Sequence record: NC_054929.1
DNA from: Escherichia phage PE37
Length of the DNA stretch: 64,000 bases
Strand: one strand, 5' to 3'
The translations under genes were made by a program, and so were the position numbers. Shown piece by piece: positions 29,727 through 58,483 of the stretch. The number at the start of each line of letters is the position of its first letter. The stretch's first letter is position 1. The notes below the pieces were generated by a model that did not search any database, was not told the DNA's origin, and saw only the letters and a program-made list of their open reading frames with translations.

Positions 29727-29799
29727 TGGGAATTAGCCAAGTTGGTAAGGCACTGGATTTTGATTCCAGGATGCAAAGGTTCGAGTCCTTTATTCCCAG
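29727..29799 (+). tRNA. tRNA-Gln (anticodon UUG)
   Basis: Cloverleaf folded by eye: acceptor TGGGAAT/ATTCCCA, anticodon loop TTTTGAT, T-arm GGTTCGAGTCC; CCA not encoded. Confidence 0.8.
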
Positions 29800-29800
29800 C

Positions 29801-29887
29801 GCGAGAATGGTCAAATTGGTAAAGGCACAGCACTTAAAATGCTGCGGAATGATTTCCTTGTGGGTTCGAGTCCCACTTCTCGCACCA
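29801..29887 (+). tRNA. tRNA-Leu (anticodon UAA), type II
   Basis: Acceptor GCGAGAA/TTCTCGC, loop CTTAAAA, long variable arm, CCA encoded. Confidence 0.85.
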
Positions 29888-29892
29888 AATTT

Positions 29893-29966
<74 letters not shown>

Positions 29967-29976
29967 ATTTAATTTA

Positions 29977-30050
29977 CTCCGTGTAGCTCAGTTTGGTAGA
30001 GCGCCTGATTTGGGATCAGGAGGTCCAAGGTTCAAATCCTTGTATGGAGA
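29977..30050 (+). tRNA. tRNA-Pro (anticodon UGG)
   Basis: Anticodon arm CCTGA-TTTGGGA-TCAGG, T-arm CAAGGTTCAAATCCTTG; acceptor has G-U pairs; CCA not encoded. Confidence 0.8.
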
Positions 30051-30052
30051 CT

Positions 30053-30142
30053 GGAGGCGTGGCAGAGTGGTTTAATGCACCGGTCTTGAAAACCGGCAGT
30101 CGCTCCGGCGACTCATAGGTTCAAATCCTATCGCCTCCGCCA
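30053..30142 (+). tRNA. tRNA-Ser (anticodon UGA), type II
   Basis: Acceptor GGAGGCG/CGCCTCC, loop CTTGAAA, long variable arm, CCA encoded. Confidence 0.85.
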
Positions 30143-30147
30143 GTTTT

Positions 30148-30223
30148 GCTGATTTAGCTCAGTAGGTAGAGCAACTCACTTGTAATGAGAAGGTCGGCGG
30201 TTCGATTCCGTCAATCAGCACCA
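30148..30223 (+). tRNA. tRNA-Thr (anticodon UGU)
   Basis: Acceptor GCTGATT/AATCAGC, loop CTTGTAA, CCA encoded. Confidence 0.85.
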
Positions 30224-30224
30224 A

Positions 30225-30299
30225 GGCCCTGTAGCTGGAAGGTTCAAGCAAGCGACTCATAATCGCCAGATGGTGGTTCAATTCCACCCAGGGCCACCA
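30225..30299 (+). tRNA. tRNA with CAU anticodon (Ile2 lysidine-type, or Met)
   Basis: Acceptor GGCCCTG/CAGGGCC, loop CTCATAA, CCA encoded; T4 tRNA-Ile counterpart by position. Confidence 0.8.
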
Positions 30300-30308
30300 A
30301 ATTAATTT

Positions 30309-30395
30309 GGGGAGTTATCCCGTAGAGGTAGCGGTGTGGACTGTAAATCCATTGTCATTGCGACTCGGGTGGTTCGACTCCATCACTCCCCACCA
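30309..30395 (+). tRNA. tRNA-Tyr-like (anticodon GUA), type II
   Basis: Acceptor GGGGAGT/ACTCCCC, anticodon arm GTGGA-CTGTAAA-TCCAT, variable arm with GTC/GAC stem, T-arm GGTGGTTCGACTCCATC, CCA encoded; D-arm imperfect. Confidence 0.6.
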
Positions 30396-30399
30396 ATTT

Positions 30400-30474
30400 G
30401 GATGTGTAGCTCAATGGCAGAGCGATCGCCTGTTAAGCGATTGGTTATAGGTTCGAATCCTATCACGTCCGCCA
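30400..30474 (+). tRNA. tRNA-Asn (anticodon GUU)
   Basis: Acceptor GGATGTG/CACGTCC, anticodon arm ATCGC-CTGTTAA-GCGAT, T-arm ATAGGTTCGAATCCTAT, CCA encoded. Confidence 0.8.
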
Positions 30475-30478
30475 AATC

Positions 30479-30554
30479 CGAGGCATAGCTCAGAAGGAAG
30501 AGCAAGGACCTTCTAAGTCCTAGGTCGTAGGTTCGATCCCTACTGCCTCGACCA
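30479..30554 (+). tRNA. tRNA-Arg (anticodon UCU)
   Basis: Acceptor CGAGGCA/TGCCTCG, D-stem GCTC/GAGC, anticodon arm AGGAC-CTTCTAA-GTCCT, CCA encoded. Confidence 0.85.
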
Positions 30555-30921: not shown

Positions 30922-31099
30922 GAAACCGGGTCGCTACCGGTAAGTCGTCGGACTGATGTTCCCTGTTTAAGGACTGGCATTAATAAATCTTTATGTTTTG
31001 TTAATGTCCTCTTATATCACAGCAGAAACGGCGCACCGAATTATCGATTCGAGGAAATATCTTTGCCGTAAGCCGAGTAGCGTTTTTGACGGAACGTTC

Positions 31100-31235
31100 G
31101 GATATGGTCGAGATATGGCCTTTTAAAAATATTGAGTAGCGTCAACTGCTTAATAACCGGGTTCGAATCCCGGCGTTTCGTACAAACACTTGCCTTAGCA
31201 GGTGGAACCCCGACAAGGTTGCCGCAAGGCTTAGA
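31100..31235 (+). ncRNA. putative small stable RNA (T4 species 1/2 rnaC/rnaD-like), boundaries approximate
   Basis: 390-nt ORF-free interval after the tRNA cluster with a tRNA-like T-arm (CCGGGTTCGAATCCCGG), repeated GAGTAGCGT, ending at a terminator; T4 has stable RNAs near tRNA-Arg. Confidence 0.3.
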
Positions 31236-31262
31236 CCCGACCGAAAGGTTGGGGCTTTTTGG
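31236..31262 (+). terminator. rho-independent terminator (copy 1)
   Basis: Hairpin CCCGACC-GAAA-GGTTGGG followed by CTTTTT. Confidence 0.7.
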
Positions 31263-36039: not shown

Positions 36040-36456
36040 ATGACTCGTATTAATTTGACTTTAGTATCTGAACTTGCTGATCAACATTTAATCGCAGAAT
36101 ACCGTGAATTGCCACGTGTTTTTGGTATAGTTCGTAAACATGTGGCAAATGGTAAACGGGTTAAAGATTTTAAAATATCTTCCGAGTTTATTTTAGGTTC
36201 TGGTCATGTTACGTTCTTTTACGATAAGTTAGAATTTTTGCGAAAGCGTCAATCAGACATTATAACGGAATGCTTAAAACGCGGGTTTAGTATAAAAGAT
36301 ACTGAAGTTCCTGACATCGGCGATATTCCAGCAGAATGGAAAAATGATTATAATCCATGCAAATCAGCTATTAAATTGAGTCAACAACGACTCAATGAAA
36401 AAATTTTAATGAAGCCACACTGGTACAAGTATTACGGCAAAAATATTTACATTTAA
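36040..36456 (+). CDS. denV: endonuclease V (pyrimidine dimer glycosylase) DenV
   Basis: 138 aa, [17 protein letters not shown]..., close to T4 DenV from memory. Confidence 0.95.
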
Positions 36457-36465
36457 AGGAAACAC

Positions 36466-36939
36466 ATGAAAACATATCAAGAATTTATTACTGAAGCAGC
36501 TATTAATTCTCAAATTATTGCTGAATCTTTTACTGATCTTTTGAAATTTAAAAAAGGTCAAAAAATCACTGCTGTATTGGATGATGGTACAGAAGTTGAG
36601 ATGGATGTACAGGGATATAATTATGCAGTAGATGGAAAACTGTATAATAAATCTCATGCTAAATTTGATTCATTTGACGACTTTGTTAATACAGTTGAAG
36701 ATGAAAAAACTCGTCGATCCATTGCAACTGGTGATGCTAAGGTTCTTATGGCACATGGTCATGAACGCATTCGCGCTAAACAGAATAAAATGGGCGAAGA
36801 TAATTTCGCATTAGTTGGTTATCAATCTGGTAAACAAACTTATGGTTATCAGCGTACTGCTACCATGTATAATAAAAATGGTAAAATTGCCTTTGTGAAT
36901 AGTAAGGGTTCTATTCAGTACGTTAAATCGTTCAAATAA
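36466..36939 (+). CDS. internal protein (ipII/ipIII-position), capsid-targeted
   Basis: 157 aa, N-terminal MKTYQEFITEA capsid targeting sequence, basic C-terminal region. Confidence 0.7.
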   Translation: MKTYQEFITEAAINSQIIAESFTDLLKFKKGQKITAVLDDGTEVEMDVQGYNYAVDGKLYNKSHAKFDSFDDFVNTVEDEKTRRSIATGDAKVLMAHGHERIRAKQNKMGEDNFALVGYQSGKQTYGYQRTATMYNKNGKIAFVNSKGSIQYVKSFK

Positions 36940-37613: not shown

Positions 37614-37939
37614 TGACAGACACACAGCTTTTCGAATATCTTTATTTTTCGCCAAAAACTATTAAAAATAAATTGGTGAATCATTTTGAAATTTTGGCAA
37701 ATAATAACGTCTTGAGCGAATTTTATCCTAAGCAATACAAATTACAAAAAGGCGTATTCAAAGGATGCAGAGTTTTGTGCACTGCTCCTAATGCAAGATT
37801 AATGAATAAAATTCCATATTTTACCATGGAATTTATTGATGGACCTTTTAAAGGACTAATCACCCAAAGTTTAATGGCATATGATTCTGAGCCATTTTTA
37901 ATTAAAGAACAGTCTTGGATAAATTTATTTTCTAATTGA
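37610..37939 (+). CDS. hypothetical protein
   Basis: ATGA overlap with upstream stop; 109 aa. Confidence 0.5.
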   Translation: MMTDTQLFEYLYFSPKTIKNKLVNHFEILANNNVLSEFYPKQYKLQKGVFKGCRVLCTAPNARLMNKIPYFTMEFIDGPFKGLITQSLMAYDSEPFLIKEQSWINLFSN

Positions 37940-37945
37940 GGTTAT

Positions 37946-38308
37946 ATGAAAGCATATCAAATTCTTGAAGGCACACATAAAGGTACTATTTATTTTGAAG
38001 ATGGTATTCAAGCACGAATTATTGTCTCCAAAACCTTTAAAGAGGACTCTTTTGTAGACCCAGAAATTTTCTACGGTTTGCATGCCCGTGAAATTGAAAT
38101 TGAACCACAGCCTACAGTTAAAATTGAAGGTGGTCAACACCTGAACGTTAACGTTCTGCGTCGTGAAACTCTGGAAGATGCAGTTAAGCATCCGGAAAAA
38201 TATCCGCAGCTGACCATCCGTGTATCCGGTTATGCAGTTCGCTTTAACTCTCTGACTCCGGAACAGCAGCGCGACGTTATCGCTCGTACCTTTACTGAGA
38301 GCTTGTAA
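37946..38308 (+). CDS. autonomous glycyl-radical cofactor (GrcA/YfiD-like; T4 Y06I-like)
   Basis: C-terminal 60 aa ([60 protein letters not shown]) matches E. coli GrcA from memory; glycine-radical motif RVSGY. Confidence 0.85.
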
Positions 38309-38529
38309 TGGCAAAGATAATTATTGAAGGTTCTAAAGATGTGTTAAATGCTTTCGCCGAGTGGTTTAGTAATTCAGGCGAACAGCAATTTAATGAAGCG
38401 TGGACCATGGGTGATATTGATGGAATTTATCCTACGACAGAAATTTCTGTTCAAGGATATGGCATTCATGAACCTATTCGTTTAGTTGAATATGATTTAT
38501 GTACTGGTGAGGAAGTCAAATATGATTGA
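38308..38529 (+). CDS. hypothetical protein
   Basis: 73 aa ORF, ATGA overlap. Confidence 0.5.
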   Translation: MAKIIIEGSKDVLNAFAEWFSNSGEQQFNEAWTMGDIDGIYPTTEISVQGYGIHEPIRLVEYDLCTGEEVKYD

Positions 38530-55728: not shown

Positions 55729-56202
55729 ATGTTATTGACTGGCAAATTATATAAAGAAGAAAAACAGAAATTTTATGATGCACAAAATGGTAAATGTTTA
55801 ATTTGCCAACGAGAACTAAATCCTGACGTTCAAGCTAATCATCTTGATCATGACCATGAATTAAATGGACCAAAAGCAGGAAAAGTACGTGGATTGCTCT
55901 GTAATCTCTGCAATGCCGCGGAAGGTCAAATGAAGCATAAATTTAATCGTTCTGGCTTAAAGGGACAAGGCGTTGATTATCTTGAATGGTTAGAAAATTT
56001 ACTTACTTATTTAAAATCCGATTACACCCAAAATAATATTCATCCTAACTTTGTTGGAGATAAATCAAAGGAATTTTCTCGTTTAGGAAAAGAGGAAATG
56101 ATGGCTGAGATGCTTCAAAGAGGATTTGAATATAATGAATCTGACACTAAAACACAATTAATAGCTTCATTTAAGAAGCAGCTTAGAAAGAGTTTAAAAT
56201 GA
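55729..56202 (+). CDS. 49: endonuclease VII (Holliday junction resolvase) gp49
   Basis: 157 aa, zinc motif CLICQ...CNLCN, matches T4 gp49 from memory. Confidence 0.95.
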   Translation: MLLTGKLYKEEKQKFYDAQNGKCLICQRELNPDVQANHLDHDHELNGPKAGKVRGLLCNLCNAAEGQMKHKFNRSGLKGQGVDYLEWLENLLTYLKSDYTQNNIHPNFVGDKSKEFSRLGKEEMMAEMLQRGFEYNESDTKTQLIASFKKQLRKSLK

Positions 56203-58016
56203 CAATTGAAAAAGAAATTGAAGGATTGATTCATAAAACTAATAAAGACCTTTTAAACGAGAATGCTAATAAAGATTCTCGTGTTTTTCCAACTCAACGG
56301 GACCTTATGGCTGGTATTGTGTCTAAACACATTGCCAAAAATATGGTCCCGTCTTTTATTATGAAAGCGCATGAAAGCGGAATTATTCATTTCCATGATA
56401 TTGATTATTCCCCTGCTCTTCCATTTACTAATTGCTGTTTAGTAGATTTAAAAGGAATGCTTGAGAACGGATTTAAGCTTGGTAATGCACAGATTGAAAC
56501 TCCTAAATCAATTGGTGTTGCTACTGCAATTATGGCACAAATTACTGCACAGGTTGCTTCCCATCAATACGGCGGAACGACTTTTGCTAATGTAGATAAA
56601 GTACTTTCTCCTTATGTTAAACGCACCTATGCAAAACATATTGAGGATGCAGAAAAATGGCAAATCGCTGATGCGTTGAATTATGCTCAATCTAAAACAG
56701 AAAAAGATGTATACGATGCATTCCAAGCTTATGAATATGAAGTAAATACTCTCTTTAGTTCAAACGGACAAACGCCTTTTGTAACAATTACATTTGGTAC
56801 GGGAACTGACTGGACTGAACGAATGATTCAGAAAGCAATTCTGAAAAATCGTATTAAAGGTCTCGGTCGTGATGGGATAACTCCTATTTTTCCTAAGCTT
56901 GTTATGTTCGTCGAAGAAGGCGTTAATCTTTACAAAGACGATCCGAATTACGACATTAAGCAACTTGCTCTAGAGTGCGCAAGCAAAAGGATGTATCCTG
57001 ATATTATTTCAGCTAAGAACAATAAAGCTATCACCGGCTCATCTATTCCTGTTTCTCCAATGGGTTGCCGCAGTTTCTTGAGTGTGTGGAAAGATTCAAC
57101 CGGTAATGAAATTCTTGATGGACGTAATAATCTCGGTGTTGTAACGCTGAATCTTCCTCGTATCGCATTAGATTCTTATATTGGAACACAGTTCAATGAA
57201 CAGAAATTTATCGAATTGTTCAATGAACGAATGGATTTATGTTTTGAAGCTTTGATGTGCAGAATTAGTTCCTTAAAAGGAGTTAAAGCGACTGTTGCTC
57301 CTATTCTTTACCAAGAAGGTGCATTCGGGGTTCGTCTTAAACCTGATGACGATATAATTGAGTTATTTAAAAACGGCAGAAGTTCAGTGTCTCTAGGATA
57401 CATTGGTATTCACGAATTGAATATTCTTGTCGGTCGTGATATTGGACGAGAAATTTTAACTAAAATGAATGCTCATCTTAAACAGTGGACTGAAAGAACC
57501 GGTTTTGCTTTTAGTTTGTATTCTACACCTGCTGAAAACCTGTGCTATCGCTTCTGTAAACTTGATACTGAAAAATATGGAAGTGTAAAGGATGTTACTG
57601 ATAAAGGCTGGTACACTAACAGTTTCCACGTTTCAGTAGAAGAAAATATCACTCCGTTTGAAAAGATTTCTCGCGAAGCACCATATCATTTCATTGCGAC
57701 AGGTGGCCACATTTCTTATGTTGAACTTCCTGATATGAAAAATAACTTAAAAGGTCTTGAGGCTGTATGGGATTATGCCGCACAACATTTAGATTATTTT
57801 GGTGTTAATATGCCGGTAGATAAATGTTTTACATGCGGAAGTACCCATGAAATGACTCCTACTGAAAACGGATTTGTTTGTTCTATTTGTGGAGAAACTG
57901 ATCCTAAAAAGATGAACACAATAAGAAGAACATGTGGTTATTTGGGAAATCCGAACGAACGCGGATTTAATCTCGGTAAAAATAAAGAAATCATGCATAG
58001 GGTTAAACACCAATGA
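56199..58016 (+). CDS. nrdD: anaerobic ribonucleotide reductase NrdD (uninterrupted)
   Basis: 605 aa continuous ORF; C-terminal glycyl radical motif RRTCGYLG and Zn-ribbon cysteines. Confidence 0.95.
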   Translation: MTIEKEIEGLIHKTNKDLLNENANKDSRVFPTQRDLMAGIVSKHIAKNMVPSFIMKAHESGIIHFHDIDYSPALPFTNCCLVDLKGMLENGFKLGNAQIETPKSIGVATAIMAQITAQVASHQYGGTTFANVDKVLSPYVKRTYAKHIEDAEKWQIADALNYAQSKTEKDVYDAFQAYEYEVNTLFSSNGQTPFVTITFGTGTDWTERMIQKAILKNRIKGLGRDGITPIFPKLVMFVEEGVNLYKDDPNYDIKQLALECASKRMYPDIISAKNNKAITGSSIPVSPMGCRSFLSVWKDSTGNEILDGRNNLGVVTLNLPRIALDSYIGTQFNEQKFIELFNERMDLCFEALMCRISSLKGVKATVAPILYQEGAFGVRLKPDDDIIELFKNGRSSVSLGYIGIHELNILVGRDIGREILTKMNAHLKQWTERTGFAFSLYSTPAENLCYRFCKLDTEKYGSVKDVTDKGWYTNSFHVSVEENITPFEKISREAPYHFIATGGHISYVELPDMKNNLKGLEAVWDYAAQHLDYFGVNMPVDKCFTCGSTHEMTPTENGFVCSICGETDPKKMNTIRRTCGYLGNPNERGFNLGKNKEIMHRVKHQ

Positions 58017-58483
58017 ATTATGATAGATTTTATCCTTGCGATTTTGTGAATGGTCCTGGATGCAGGACTGTTCTTTTCGTTACAGGTTGTTTGCATAAAT
58101 GTGAAGGGTGTTATAATAAATCAACATGGAATGCTAGAAATGGTATTCCATTCACTGGTGAAACACTAGAGCAATTAATTGAATGTTTGAATAATGATTA
58201 TATAGAAGGATTGACTATAACTGGAGGTGACCCTCTCTATCCTGATAATCGAGATGTTATTCATTGCATTGTTCAAACAGTAAAAAATCTTTATCCTAAT
58301 AAAAGCATTTGGTTGTGGACAGGATATAAGTTTGAAGATATTAAACAACTAGAAATGCTTAAATATGTTGATGTTATTATTGATGGGAAGTATGAGAAAA
58401 ATCTTCCGACCAAAAAGCTGTGGCGAGGTTCAGATAATCAGCGACTTTGGTCAAATACCGATGGGGTGTGGAAACATGATTAA
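58013..58483 (+). CDS. nrdG: anaerobic RNR activating enzyme NrdG (radical SAM)
   Basis: 156 aa, CxxxCxxC (CLHKCEGC). Confidence 0.95.
   Translation: MNYDRFYPCDFVNGPGCRTVLFVTGCLHKCEGCYNKSTWNARNGIPFTGETLEQLIECLNNDYIEGLTITGGDPLYPDNRDVIHCIVQTVKNLYPNKSIWLWTGYKFEDIKQLEMLKYVDVIIDGKYEKNLPTKKLWRGSDNQRLWSNTDGVWKHD

Follow-up and report, generated by a model that had tools for sequence, protein, structure and literature searches.

Probable gene conversion of the glycyl-radical segment of a T4-type phage vs.6 gene by Escherichia coli grcA

The window considered here, i.e., the whole analysed stretch of 64,000 nucleotides of Escherichia phage PE37 (sequence record NC_054929.1), contains a small open reading frame (ORF 37946-38308) in a row of genes read in one direction: denV (36040-36456), an ORF of an internal virion protein, vs.8, vs.7, ORF 37946-38308, vs.5, vs.4 and regB. 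The same gene order is given in the annotation of phage T4 around vs.6, and the strand and the length of the gene are also the same. The sequence GAGG is situated 4–5 nt 5' of the start codon, and the overlap of the Shine-Dalgarno-like TGAGG with the stop codon of vs.7 indicates translational coupling in the co-directional vs.8-vs.7-vs.6-vs.5 cluster. At the other end, the TAA of the ORF overlaps the ATG of vs.5. Around the ORF, scans for promoters and terminators gave sites no more common than in shuffled sequence. An antisense ORF of 129 aa (37925-38314) is without supporting evidence and was taken as a by-product. The positions of the features are collected in Table 1.

Table 1. Features of the vs.6 locus and of the glycyl-radical genes mentioned for context (positions are those of the window)
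Feature	Position	Strand	Remarks
Shine-Dalgarno-like TGAGG	37937..37941	+	Overlaps TGA stop of vs.7; read from sequence
vs.6/Y06I ortholog, GrcA-type autonomous glycyl radical cofactor	37946..38308, stop included	+	120-aa ATG ORF
Phage-native 5' part, codons 1-59 and first nt of codon 60	37946..38123	+	AT-rich; diverged GrcA N-domain
Probable host-derived conversion tract, residues 61-117, glycyl radical domain	38124..38298	+	175 nt identical to E. coli grcA
GGT codon, Gly95 in RVSGY, predicted glycyl radical site	38228..38230	+	From sequence and alignment to GrcA and PflB
Phage-native 3' tail ..G AGC TTG TAA	38299..38308	+	2 synonymous differences from E. coli
nrdD (context only)	56199-58016	+	Uninterrupted, 605 aa; Pfam NRDD 2.2e-171 over full length, Gly_radical 1.2e-25
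nrdG activase (context only)	58013-58483	+	Fer4_12 and Radical_SAM matches

Judging by its sequence, the ORF is the ortholog of T4 vs.6 (protein Y06I), a stand-alone glycyl radical protein. Both genes encode 120 aa, and they share 97.8% of DNA positions and 119 of 120 residues. An earlier reading made from the letters alone (hereafter, the sequence-only reading) had mentioned Y06I as a T4 homolog described as a spare part for oxygen-damaged pyruvate formate-lyase (PFL); this link was right, and synteny together with the 119 common residues indicates that the gene is the vs.6/Y06I ortholog itself. The gene vs.6 was kept in all six of the six T4-like genomes compared by Nolan et al. 2006 (PMC1524935), and the label of an autonomous glycyl radical cofactor is already attached to it in GenBank records.

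Membership in the GrcA family was considered in terms of TIGR04365 / IPR011140, where a small (~14 kDa) stand-alone protein ending in a PF01228 domain is expected, and a protein of exactly this kind was found. The Pfam domain Gly_radical PF01228 covers residues 61-101 (E 2.8e-18; 66.8 bits, the cutoff being 22.2), the NCBIfam model TIGR04365 GrcA matches residues 20-120 (E 3.7e-45, 153.3 bits), the phrog_1209 match extends over the full length, and the best structure match is PDB 6OWR (E. coli GrcA) with residues 22-120 aligned. The TIGR04365 score does not reach the equivalog cutoff of 170 bits because the N-terminal domain has diverged; this argues against a strict sequence equivalog, not against a GrcA-like mode of working. 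The motif R92-V-S-G95-Y96 is followed by a PFL-type C-terminal helix. The counterparts of Gly95 are Gly102 in GrcA and Gly734 in PflB, the equivalence to Gly734 being taken from PMC8683613.

Residues 61-120 coincide with residues 68-127 of E. coli GrcA without a single mismatch, RVSGY included, just as the sequence-only reading had stated (60/60). At the DNA level, this likeness is sharply limited. Identity to E. coli grcA amounts to 175/175 at 38124-38298, 82/178 (46%) in the aligned 5' part and 8/10 in the last 10 nt (Fisher p 6e-37). Beyond the stop codon, the phage and E. coli loci are 36% identical, and homology ends at the stop. The GAG at codon 118 is common to nearly all phage homologs. 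Over the 57 codons of the tract, not one of ~43 synonymous sites differs from E. coli grcA (dS 0), while the pS of E. coli grcA against Klebsiella or Salmonella is 0.41-0.58. The recent capture of host sequence proposed earlier is therefore borne out, as the synonymous divergence usual for phage genes is not seen in the alignment.

The tract was matched in 5426 of 5426 complete E. coli genomes, with 5156 records at 99% identity or more, and was 100% identical in the first five genomes of an evenly spaced E. coli sample. For the 171-nt core (38126-38296), the identity of the window to bacterial genes decreases from E. coli (100%) to Escherichia sp. (98.8%), Citrobacter amalonaticus (92.4%), K. 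pneumoniae (87.7%) and Salmonella enterica (83.0%). Given the lack of synonymous differences from E. coli grcA, the donor of the tract lies within the present diversity of E. coli. The genes pflB and tdcE, tried as donors, were rejected with only ~76-80% DNA identity to the tract. When the complete 64 kb were compared with E. coli genomes by megablast, no other chromosomal match was obtained.

The composition of the tract differs from that of its surroundings as well. Its GC content is 0.49-0.50 against a window mean of 0.354, so that among 175-nt windows it ranks in the highest 0.8%; windows with higher GC are situated only between ~29.98 and 31.26 kb, with a peak at 31088-31262, and those up to ~30.5 kb overlap the tRNA cluster. 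The GC content of the 5' part is 0.35. The GC3 value is 0.42 in the tract, equal to that of E. coli grcA, against 0.22 in the 5' half and 0.22-0.29 in neighbouring phage genes. Codons within the tract are also E. coli-like (all Leu are CTG, Pro CCG and Arg CGT or CGC), and the Leu codon at the end of the gene, beyond the tract, returns to TTG. By the GC3 comparison, the donor-like composition and codon use are limited to the block of the tract.

The N-terminal half had been described as 60 residues unrelated to GrcA, and the whole protein as a phage-specific N-terminus fused to a host half. Neither statement holds. In BLASTP with the N-terminal parts alone, 13/40 residues (33%) were identical to GrcA with E 2e-5; a profile of 12 phage N-termini, compared by hhalign with one of 18 bacterial N-termini, gave a probability of 91.9% and E 6.9e-7, and the alignment of this half comprises 46 collinear columns, the last of which stands exactly at the junction. 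Together with the TIGR04365 and 6OWR matches, these data show the N-half to be a diverged GrcA N-domain; the first ~13-20 residues of the phage protein are not alignable to GrcA.

Syntenic orthologs of 120 aa were found in Mosigvirus, Jiaodavirus, Slopekvirus and Pseudotevenvirus. In Slopekvirus, Pseudotevenvirus and other 120-aa orthologs, the core has only 77-86% DNA identity to any sampled bacterial grcA, with the protein identical or nearly identical. GrcA-like genes also occur in T5-like phages (genomes of ~110-120 kb), jumbo phages and T4-like phages of Aeromonas, Vibrio and Pasteurellaceae, and their cores reach only 65-86% DNA identity to any grcA gene of the bacterial sample. The bacterial sample comprised 81 grcA genes (82-85 once K. 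pneumoniae and three more alleles of E. coli were added); the K. oxytoca grcA, a possible donor for phage PKO111, was absent from it. In many of these relatives, T5-like and jumbo phages included, the radical-domain peptide is the same or nearly so and the DNA is shifted towards AT. Such AT-rich diverged cores represent the unconverted state, which was also found in E. coli phages of putative RB43/RB16 type. Since the N-half is homologous to GrcA and unconverted relatives have the same architecture and synteny, the chimera most probably arose by gene conversion within an old phage homolog of grcA and not by fusion.

The chimera is common to hundreds of phage genomes and is not special to the window: 641 phage records matched the E. 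coli tract at 95% identity or more, and 290 at 99% or more. One record of 116 kb (EC.W14-2), considered as a T5-like phage with an E. coli-identical tract, turned out to be an incomplete Tequatrovirus record and adds no second phage family. A Salmonella-type tract was not found in phages, the best match being 87.6%.

Comparison of Tequatrovirus with Mosigvirus gives an indication of the age of the tract. The two genera are separated by 18-21 substitutions over the 177 nt of the 5' part, with 11.5-12.5 synonymous differences (dS 0.40-0.45), whereas at gene positions 179-353 there is no fixed difference, and pairwise dS is 0-0.10. Genus-specific differences reach position 170 and start again at 354-360. 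Had there been one conversion only, before the genera separated, ~9-13 synonymous differences would be expected between their tracts. These alignments accordingly require a later renewal of the tract, either by separate conversion of each genus from the host or by movement of this exact piece between phages. Both genera include alleles 100% identical to extant E. coli alleles. The E. coli SNPs 192G, 219C and 282A recur singly in individual phage alleles; the combination 192G+219C of phage L090 was found in no E. coli genome, so the shared SNPs are possibly homoplasies.

Exchange does not seem to follow the isolation host quickly. Tequatroviruses isolated on Yersinia or Citrobacter retain an E. 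coli-type tract, and many phage alleles are 1-6 nt away from the E. coli tract (private substitutions range from 0 to 6 nt). Together with the lack of a Salmonella-type tract among the phages, this suggests episodic conversion and not rapid tracking of the host of isolation.

A second donor is indicated by Klebsiella Jiaodaviruses. In phage Kp17-11, the stretch from position 181 to 338 agrees with K. pneumoniae grcA at 96.8% of its nucleotides and codes for the Leu77 and Glu81 of that species, with GC3 of 0.61 in the tract against 0.25 in the 5' half. This tract ends earlier, at ~338, and phage-type bases begin from 339. Altogether, 106 phage records match the K. pneumoniae tract at 95-99% identity, the best at 98.2%, one K. 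pneumoniae allele being compared. In two Jiaodaviruses isolated on K. pneumoniae and K. oxytoca, dS of the core (0.46) exceeds that of the 5' part (0.21), the reverse of the usual pattern, which suggests different donors. Conversion occurred at least twice with different donors, one of E. coli type and one of K. pneumoniae type. Within the E. coli phages it was probably repeated, so that the tract has not left the range of alleles now seen in E. coli.

Several other explanations of the mosaic were considered. The version of the sequence-only reading, i.e., illegitimate capture in which the 3' half of host grcA was newly fused to an unrelated phage ORF, could account for the sharp junction at 38123/38124, where GC and identity jump, and for the N-terminal 60 residues giving no Pfam match on their own. 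It is nevertheless very improbable: the N-half is collinear with the GrcA N-domain, distant T4-like genera hold the 120-aa gene at the same place with old, AT-shifted cores, and the last 10 nt are phage-native, so that the host DNA forms a patch inside the gene, as homologous replacement predicts. Still less can be said for a reading without recent transfer, in which the identity results from extreme purifying selection on the radical domain or from convergence; its probability is negligible. The domain peptide is, in fact, nearly invariant in bacteria and phages, but selection on the protein leaves synonymous sites unfixed, and their complete agreement here rules it out as the source of identity; moreover, phages and bacteria with an identical peptide differ at 15-20% of nucleotides, and codon choice turns E. 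coli-style at the junction. Reverse transfer, with the 3' half of E. coli grcA taken from a T4-like phage, has nothing specific in its favour beyond the fact that identity alone is silent on direction, and we consider it extremely unlikely. The tract is bacterial and not phage-like in composition and occurs in every E. coli genome searched, unconverted phage cores are AT-shifted, and the 5' and 3' halves of E. coli grcA diverge from Citrobacter, Salmonella and Klebsiella roughly in parallel. This parallel divergence and the bacterial composition of the tract indicate that the direction was from host to phage.

A more serious alternative is that host DNA entered the phage gene only once and then spread between Tequatrovirus and Mosigvirus by phage-phage recombination in co-infection, the Klebsiella type being one further event. 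T4-type phages recombine readily, the tract has common boundaries in the two genera, its private substitutions show that it changes within phages too, and the SNP combination of L090 is unmatched by any E. coli allele. On the other hand, crossovers between phages would have to hit the 9 nt of positions 171-179 at the 5' border and a stretch of ~1-4 nt at the 3' border, sparing the genus-specific flanks, whereas separate conversions from the host need no coincidence because the ends of the patch are set by the limits of homology between the phage and host genes. Perfect matches to living E. coli alleles in both genera also speak against such spread, which we regard as doubtful.

In our opinion, the data are best explained if the ORF is a vs.6 ortholog with the function of a PFL spare part, in which the radical segment of an old gene was overwritten by the host allele more than once; the probability of this reading may be estimated at about 85%. 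According to it, vs.6 is an old, vertically inherited grcA homolog of the T4 family with a fast-evolving N-domain of its own, and in Tequatrovirus and Mosigvirus the gene positions 179-353 have been overwritten by the E. coli allele. The most likely route, as far as may be deduced from the tract and its borders, is homologous recombination with fragments of host DNA. Fragments of degraded host DNA spanning grcA could pair with the phage gene where nucleotide similarity survives, namely in the conserved domain, and the phage recombination machinery would swap the paired segment for the host version. The ends of the tract lie at the limits of phage-host nucleotide similarity, namely at the start of the conserved domain and at the stop codon. 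Once the tract had become identical to that of the host, further exchange would be easy and would erase new phage mutations. In our estimate, it is about as likely as not that the radical segment evolves in concert with host grcA, being repeatedly repaired from the host chromosome during infection with patches from the phage's own host genus (E. coli for Tequatrovirus and Mosigvirus, K. pneumoniae for Jiaodavirus), so that it would follow the living alleles of the host species while the remainder of the gene drifts apart.

Besides YfiD of E. coli, Y06I of T4 is the only PFL spare part to have been validated (Andorfer et al. 2021, PMC8683613). According to Wagner et al. 2001, as cited in PMC8683613, T4 Y06I was activated in vitro by the PFL activase and restored cleaved PFL. 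We infer the same PFL-rescue function, with Gly95 as the radical site, for the protein of the window because it shares 119/120 residues with Y06I and its radical domain is identical to that of the host. The host activase PflA would place the radical on Gly95, and the activated phage protein would dock on PFL cleaved by oxygen at Gly734 and restore its activity. It is plausible that the phage supplies the spare part since, after T4-type shut-off of host transcription, host grcA would not be inducible. The phage copy could then keep up the fermentative supply of acetyl-CoA and ATP during micro-oxic infection.

The phage's other glycyl-radical system, nrdD and nrdG, lies in the same window, with nrdD as one unbroken 605-aa ORF, in agreement with the sequence-only reading. 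An equally plausible hypothesis is that the spare part and NrdD/NrdG together represent an adaptation to infection in gut-like low-oxygen surroundings. That the protein serves as a spare part for phage NrdD or in nucleotide metabolism, instead of for host PFL, is a highly unlikely alternative, in spite of the presence of nrdD and nrdG and of the role in nucleotide metabolism suggested from the Pfam match by Nolan et al. 2006 (PMC1524935). Its radical domain is identical to that of the PFL-specific host GrcA and most similar to the C-terminus of PflB (94 bits with PflB chains; TIGR01255), and in the in vitro experiments of Wagner 2001, cited in PMC8683613, T4 Y06I restored cleaved PFL after being activated by the PFL activase.

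The gene and its biochemical role are already known from T4 vs.6/Y06I, and the annotation is ordinary. The evolutionary behaviour of the tract is apparently under-described: in the full-text literature, no description of nucleotide-level host identity or of host-matched tracts of vs.6 was found, an earlier mention being possible. With 175 bases that cannot be told apart from alleles of living E. coli, a strictly lytic phage that destroys host DNA offers a clean natural example of homologous exchange from a host to a virulent phage, and in sister genera and Klebsiella phages the patch has been renewed or exchanged for that of their own host. Direct measurement of the exchange is feasible with silent markers in host grcA. 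If the segment does evolve in concert with host grcA, it would be a natural and measurable case in which a lytic phage that degrades host DNA recombines homologously with the chromosome of its host. The tract would also be a built-in record of the recent natural host of a phage lineage and may serve as a marker. The patch is possibly maintained by the need of the spare part to fit host PflB and PflA exactly.

The closest known system is T4 vs.6, which has the same neighbours (denV, vs.8, vs.7 on one side and vs.5, vs.4, regB on the other) and the same mosaic with E. coli grcA. In T4, residue 73 is His (218G>A), whereas the window allele and E. coli have Arg, and T4 has the E. coli base at position 354 (GAA), which shifts the 3' junction 3-4 nt further on; no functional difference between the two alleles is to be expected. 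E. coli GrcA (YfiD; 6OWR, TIGR04365) is likewise a small stand-alone protein with RVSGY, a homologous N-domain and the same C-terminal 60 residues. The phage protein differs from it in an N-domain only ~33% identical over 40 aa and in being 7 aa shorter, and its gene belongs to an AT-rich cluster of early genes of a lytic phage. The C-terminal domain of PflB/TdcE is the same domain with the same motif and is the very part of PFL that the spare part replaces, but PflB is an enzyme of 760 aa, and the 3' end of its gene is only ~80% identical in DNA to the tract, so PflB is not the donor.

The small GrcA-type architecture is widespread in other phages as well, with 1513 matching phage records; the GrcA-like genes of T5-like, jumbo and Aeromonas, Vibrio and Pasteurellaceae T4-like phages differ in having cores with phage-specific amino-acid changes. 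Mosaics of the photosynthesis genes psbA and psbD in cyanophages arose by intragenic recombination between host and phage, as reportedly described by Zeidner et al. 2005 and Sullivan et al. 2006. In both systems, a metabolic gene of a phage exchanges segments with the host copy and acquires patchy host-like tracts. In vs.6, however, only the 3' patch coding for the domain is host-like, and it is identical to living host alleles; the carrier is an enterobacterial virus of T4 type that degrades host DNA, and different phage genera match different host genera.

The radical-domain core of vs.6, the gene for the GrcA-type glycyl radical cofactor, was compared at gene positions 181-351 in two Klebsiella Jiaodaviruses, Kp17-11 (L004), whose isolate host is K. 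pneumoniae, and PKO111 (L005) of K. oxytoca. The synonymous divergence of the core (dS 0.46) exceeded that of the phage-native 5' half (dS 0.21), which suggests that the two cores arose by separate conversions, with grcA DNA coming from different Klebsiella donors. In Slopekvirus-type Klebsiella phages (L006, L007, L106 and L107), the core retains the Klebsiella-type residues Leu77 and Glu81, and its DNA shows about 81-83% identity to K. pneumoniae grcA, with differences mostly in the GC-to-AT direction. This core could be an old tract of Klebsiella origin that has drifted since its acquisition, or it could reflect selection at the protein level for a match to the host.

Two T4-like contigs of about 163-165 kb (L119 and L121) contain a core peptide closer to the C-terminus of PflB than to GrcA, for example, MNREMLLEAMEDPTKY...LTKEQQ, and this hints that pflB instead of grcA may be the source or the exchange partner in these lineages. 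In L115, a Klebsiella phage of 167,034 bp as it stands in IMG/VR, the vs.6 frame with the radical motif comprises only 80 codons, and the tblastn match covers 359 nt, not 360; therefore, a 1-nt indel is suggested, either as a sequencing error or as the mark of a pseudogene. The reference T4 allele (NC_000866, L003) carries a non-synonymous G>A change at gene position 218, leading to Arg73His within the otherwise invariant radical domain. This change was absent from the 25 other T4-family phage alleles and 85 bacterial genes examined, and it could have appeared in the laboratory lineage of T4.

Several short IMG/VR contigs classified as viral (L158-L168 and L118) contain PflB-type or bacterial-type sequences, in which the GC content is about 0.5 both before and after the motif. 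Their ORFs, of at least 155-202 aa, extend past the end of the locus. These are probably bacterial pflB or grcA genes in misclassified or prophage-flanking contigs rather than GrcA genes of phages.

Features of the PE37 window in the denV-vs.8, tRNA and nrdD/nrdG regions
Feature	Position	Strand	Details
tRNA cluster	29727-30554	+	10 tightly clustered genes: Gln, Leu, Gly, Pro, Ser, Thr, Met(CAT), Tyr, Asn, Arg
tRNA-Tyr region	30306-30398		90.5% match to an E. coli plasmid record
157-aa ORF between denV and vs.8	36466-36939		PHROG 3155 'internal virion protein', full-length match, E 6e-102
Endonuclease VII (gp49), then nrdD, then nrdG	55729-58483

Several regions of the window (see the table) can be set against those of T4. 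At the denV-vs.8 site, where the window has an ORF, T4 is without a gene, and in other relatives the interval holds zero to three different small ORFs. This junction appears to be a site where insertions vary. The nrdD gene was claimed to be intronless in the sequence-only reading, and it is indeed a single uninterrupted ORF of 605 aa; since the T4 reference gene is interrupted by a group I intron, the window carries an intron-less allele. Relative to the T4 set of eight tRNA genes, which includes Ile, the window cluster would add Tyr and Asn, with Met(CAT) replacing Ile.
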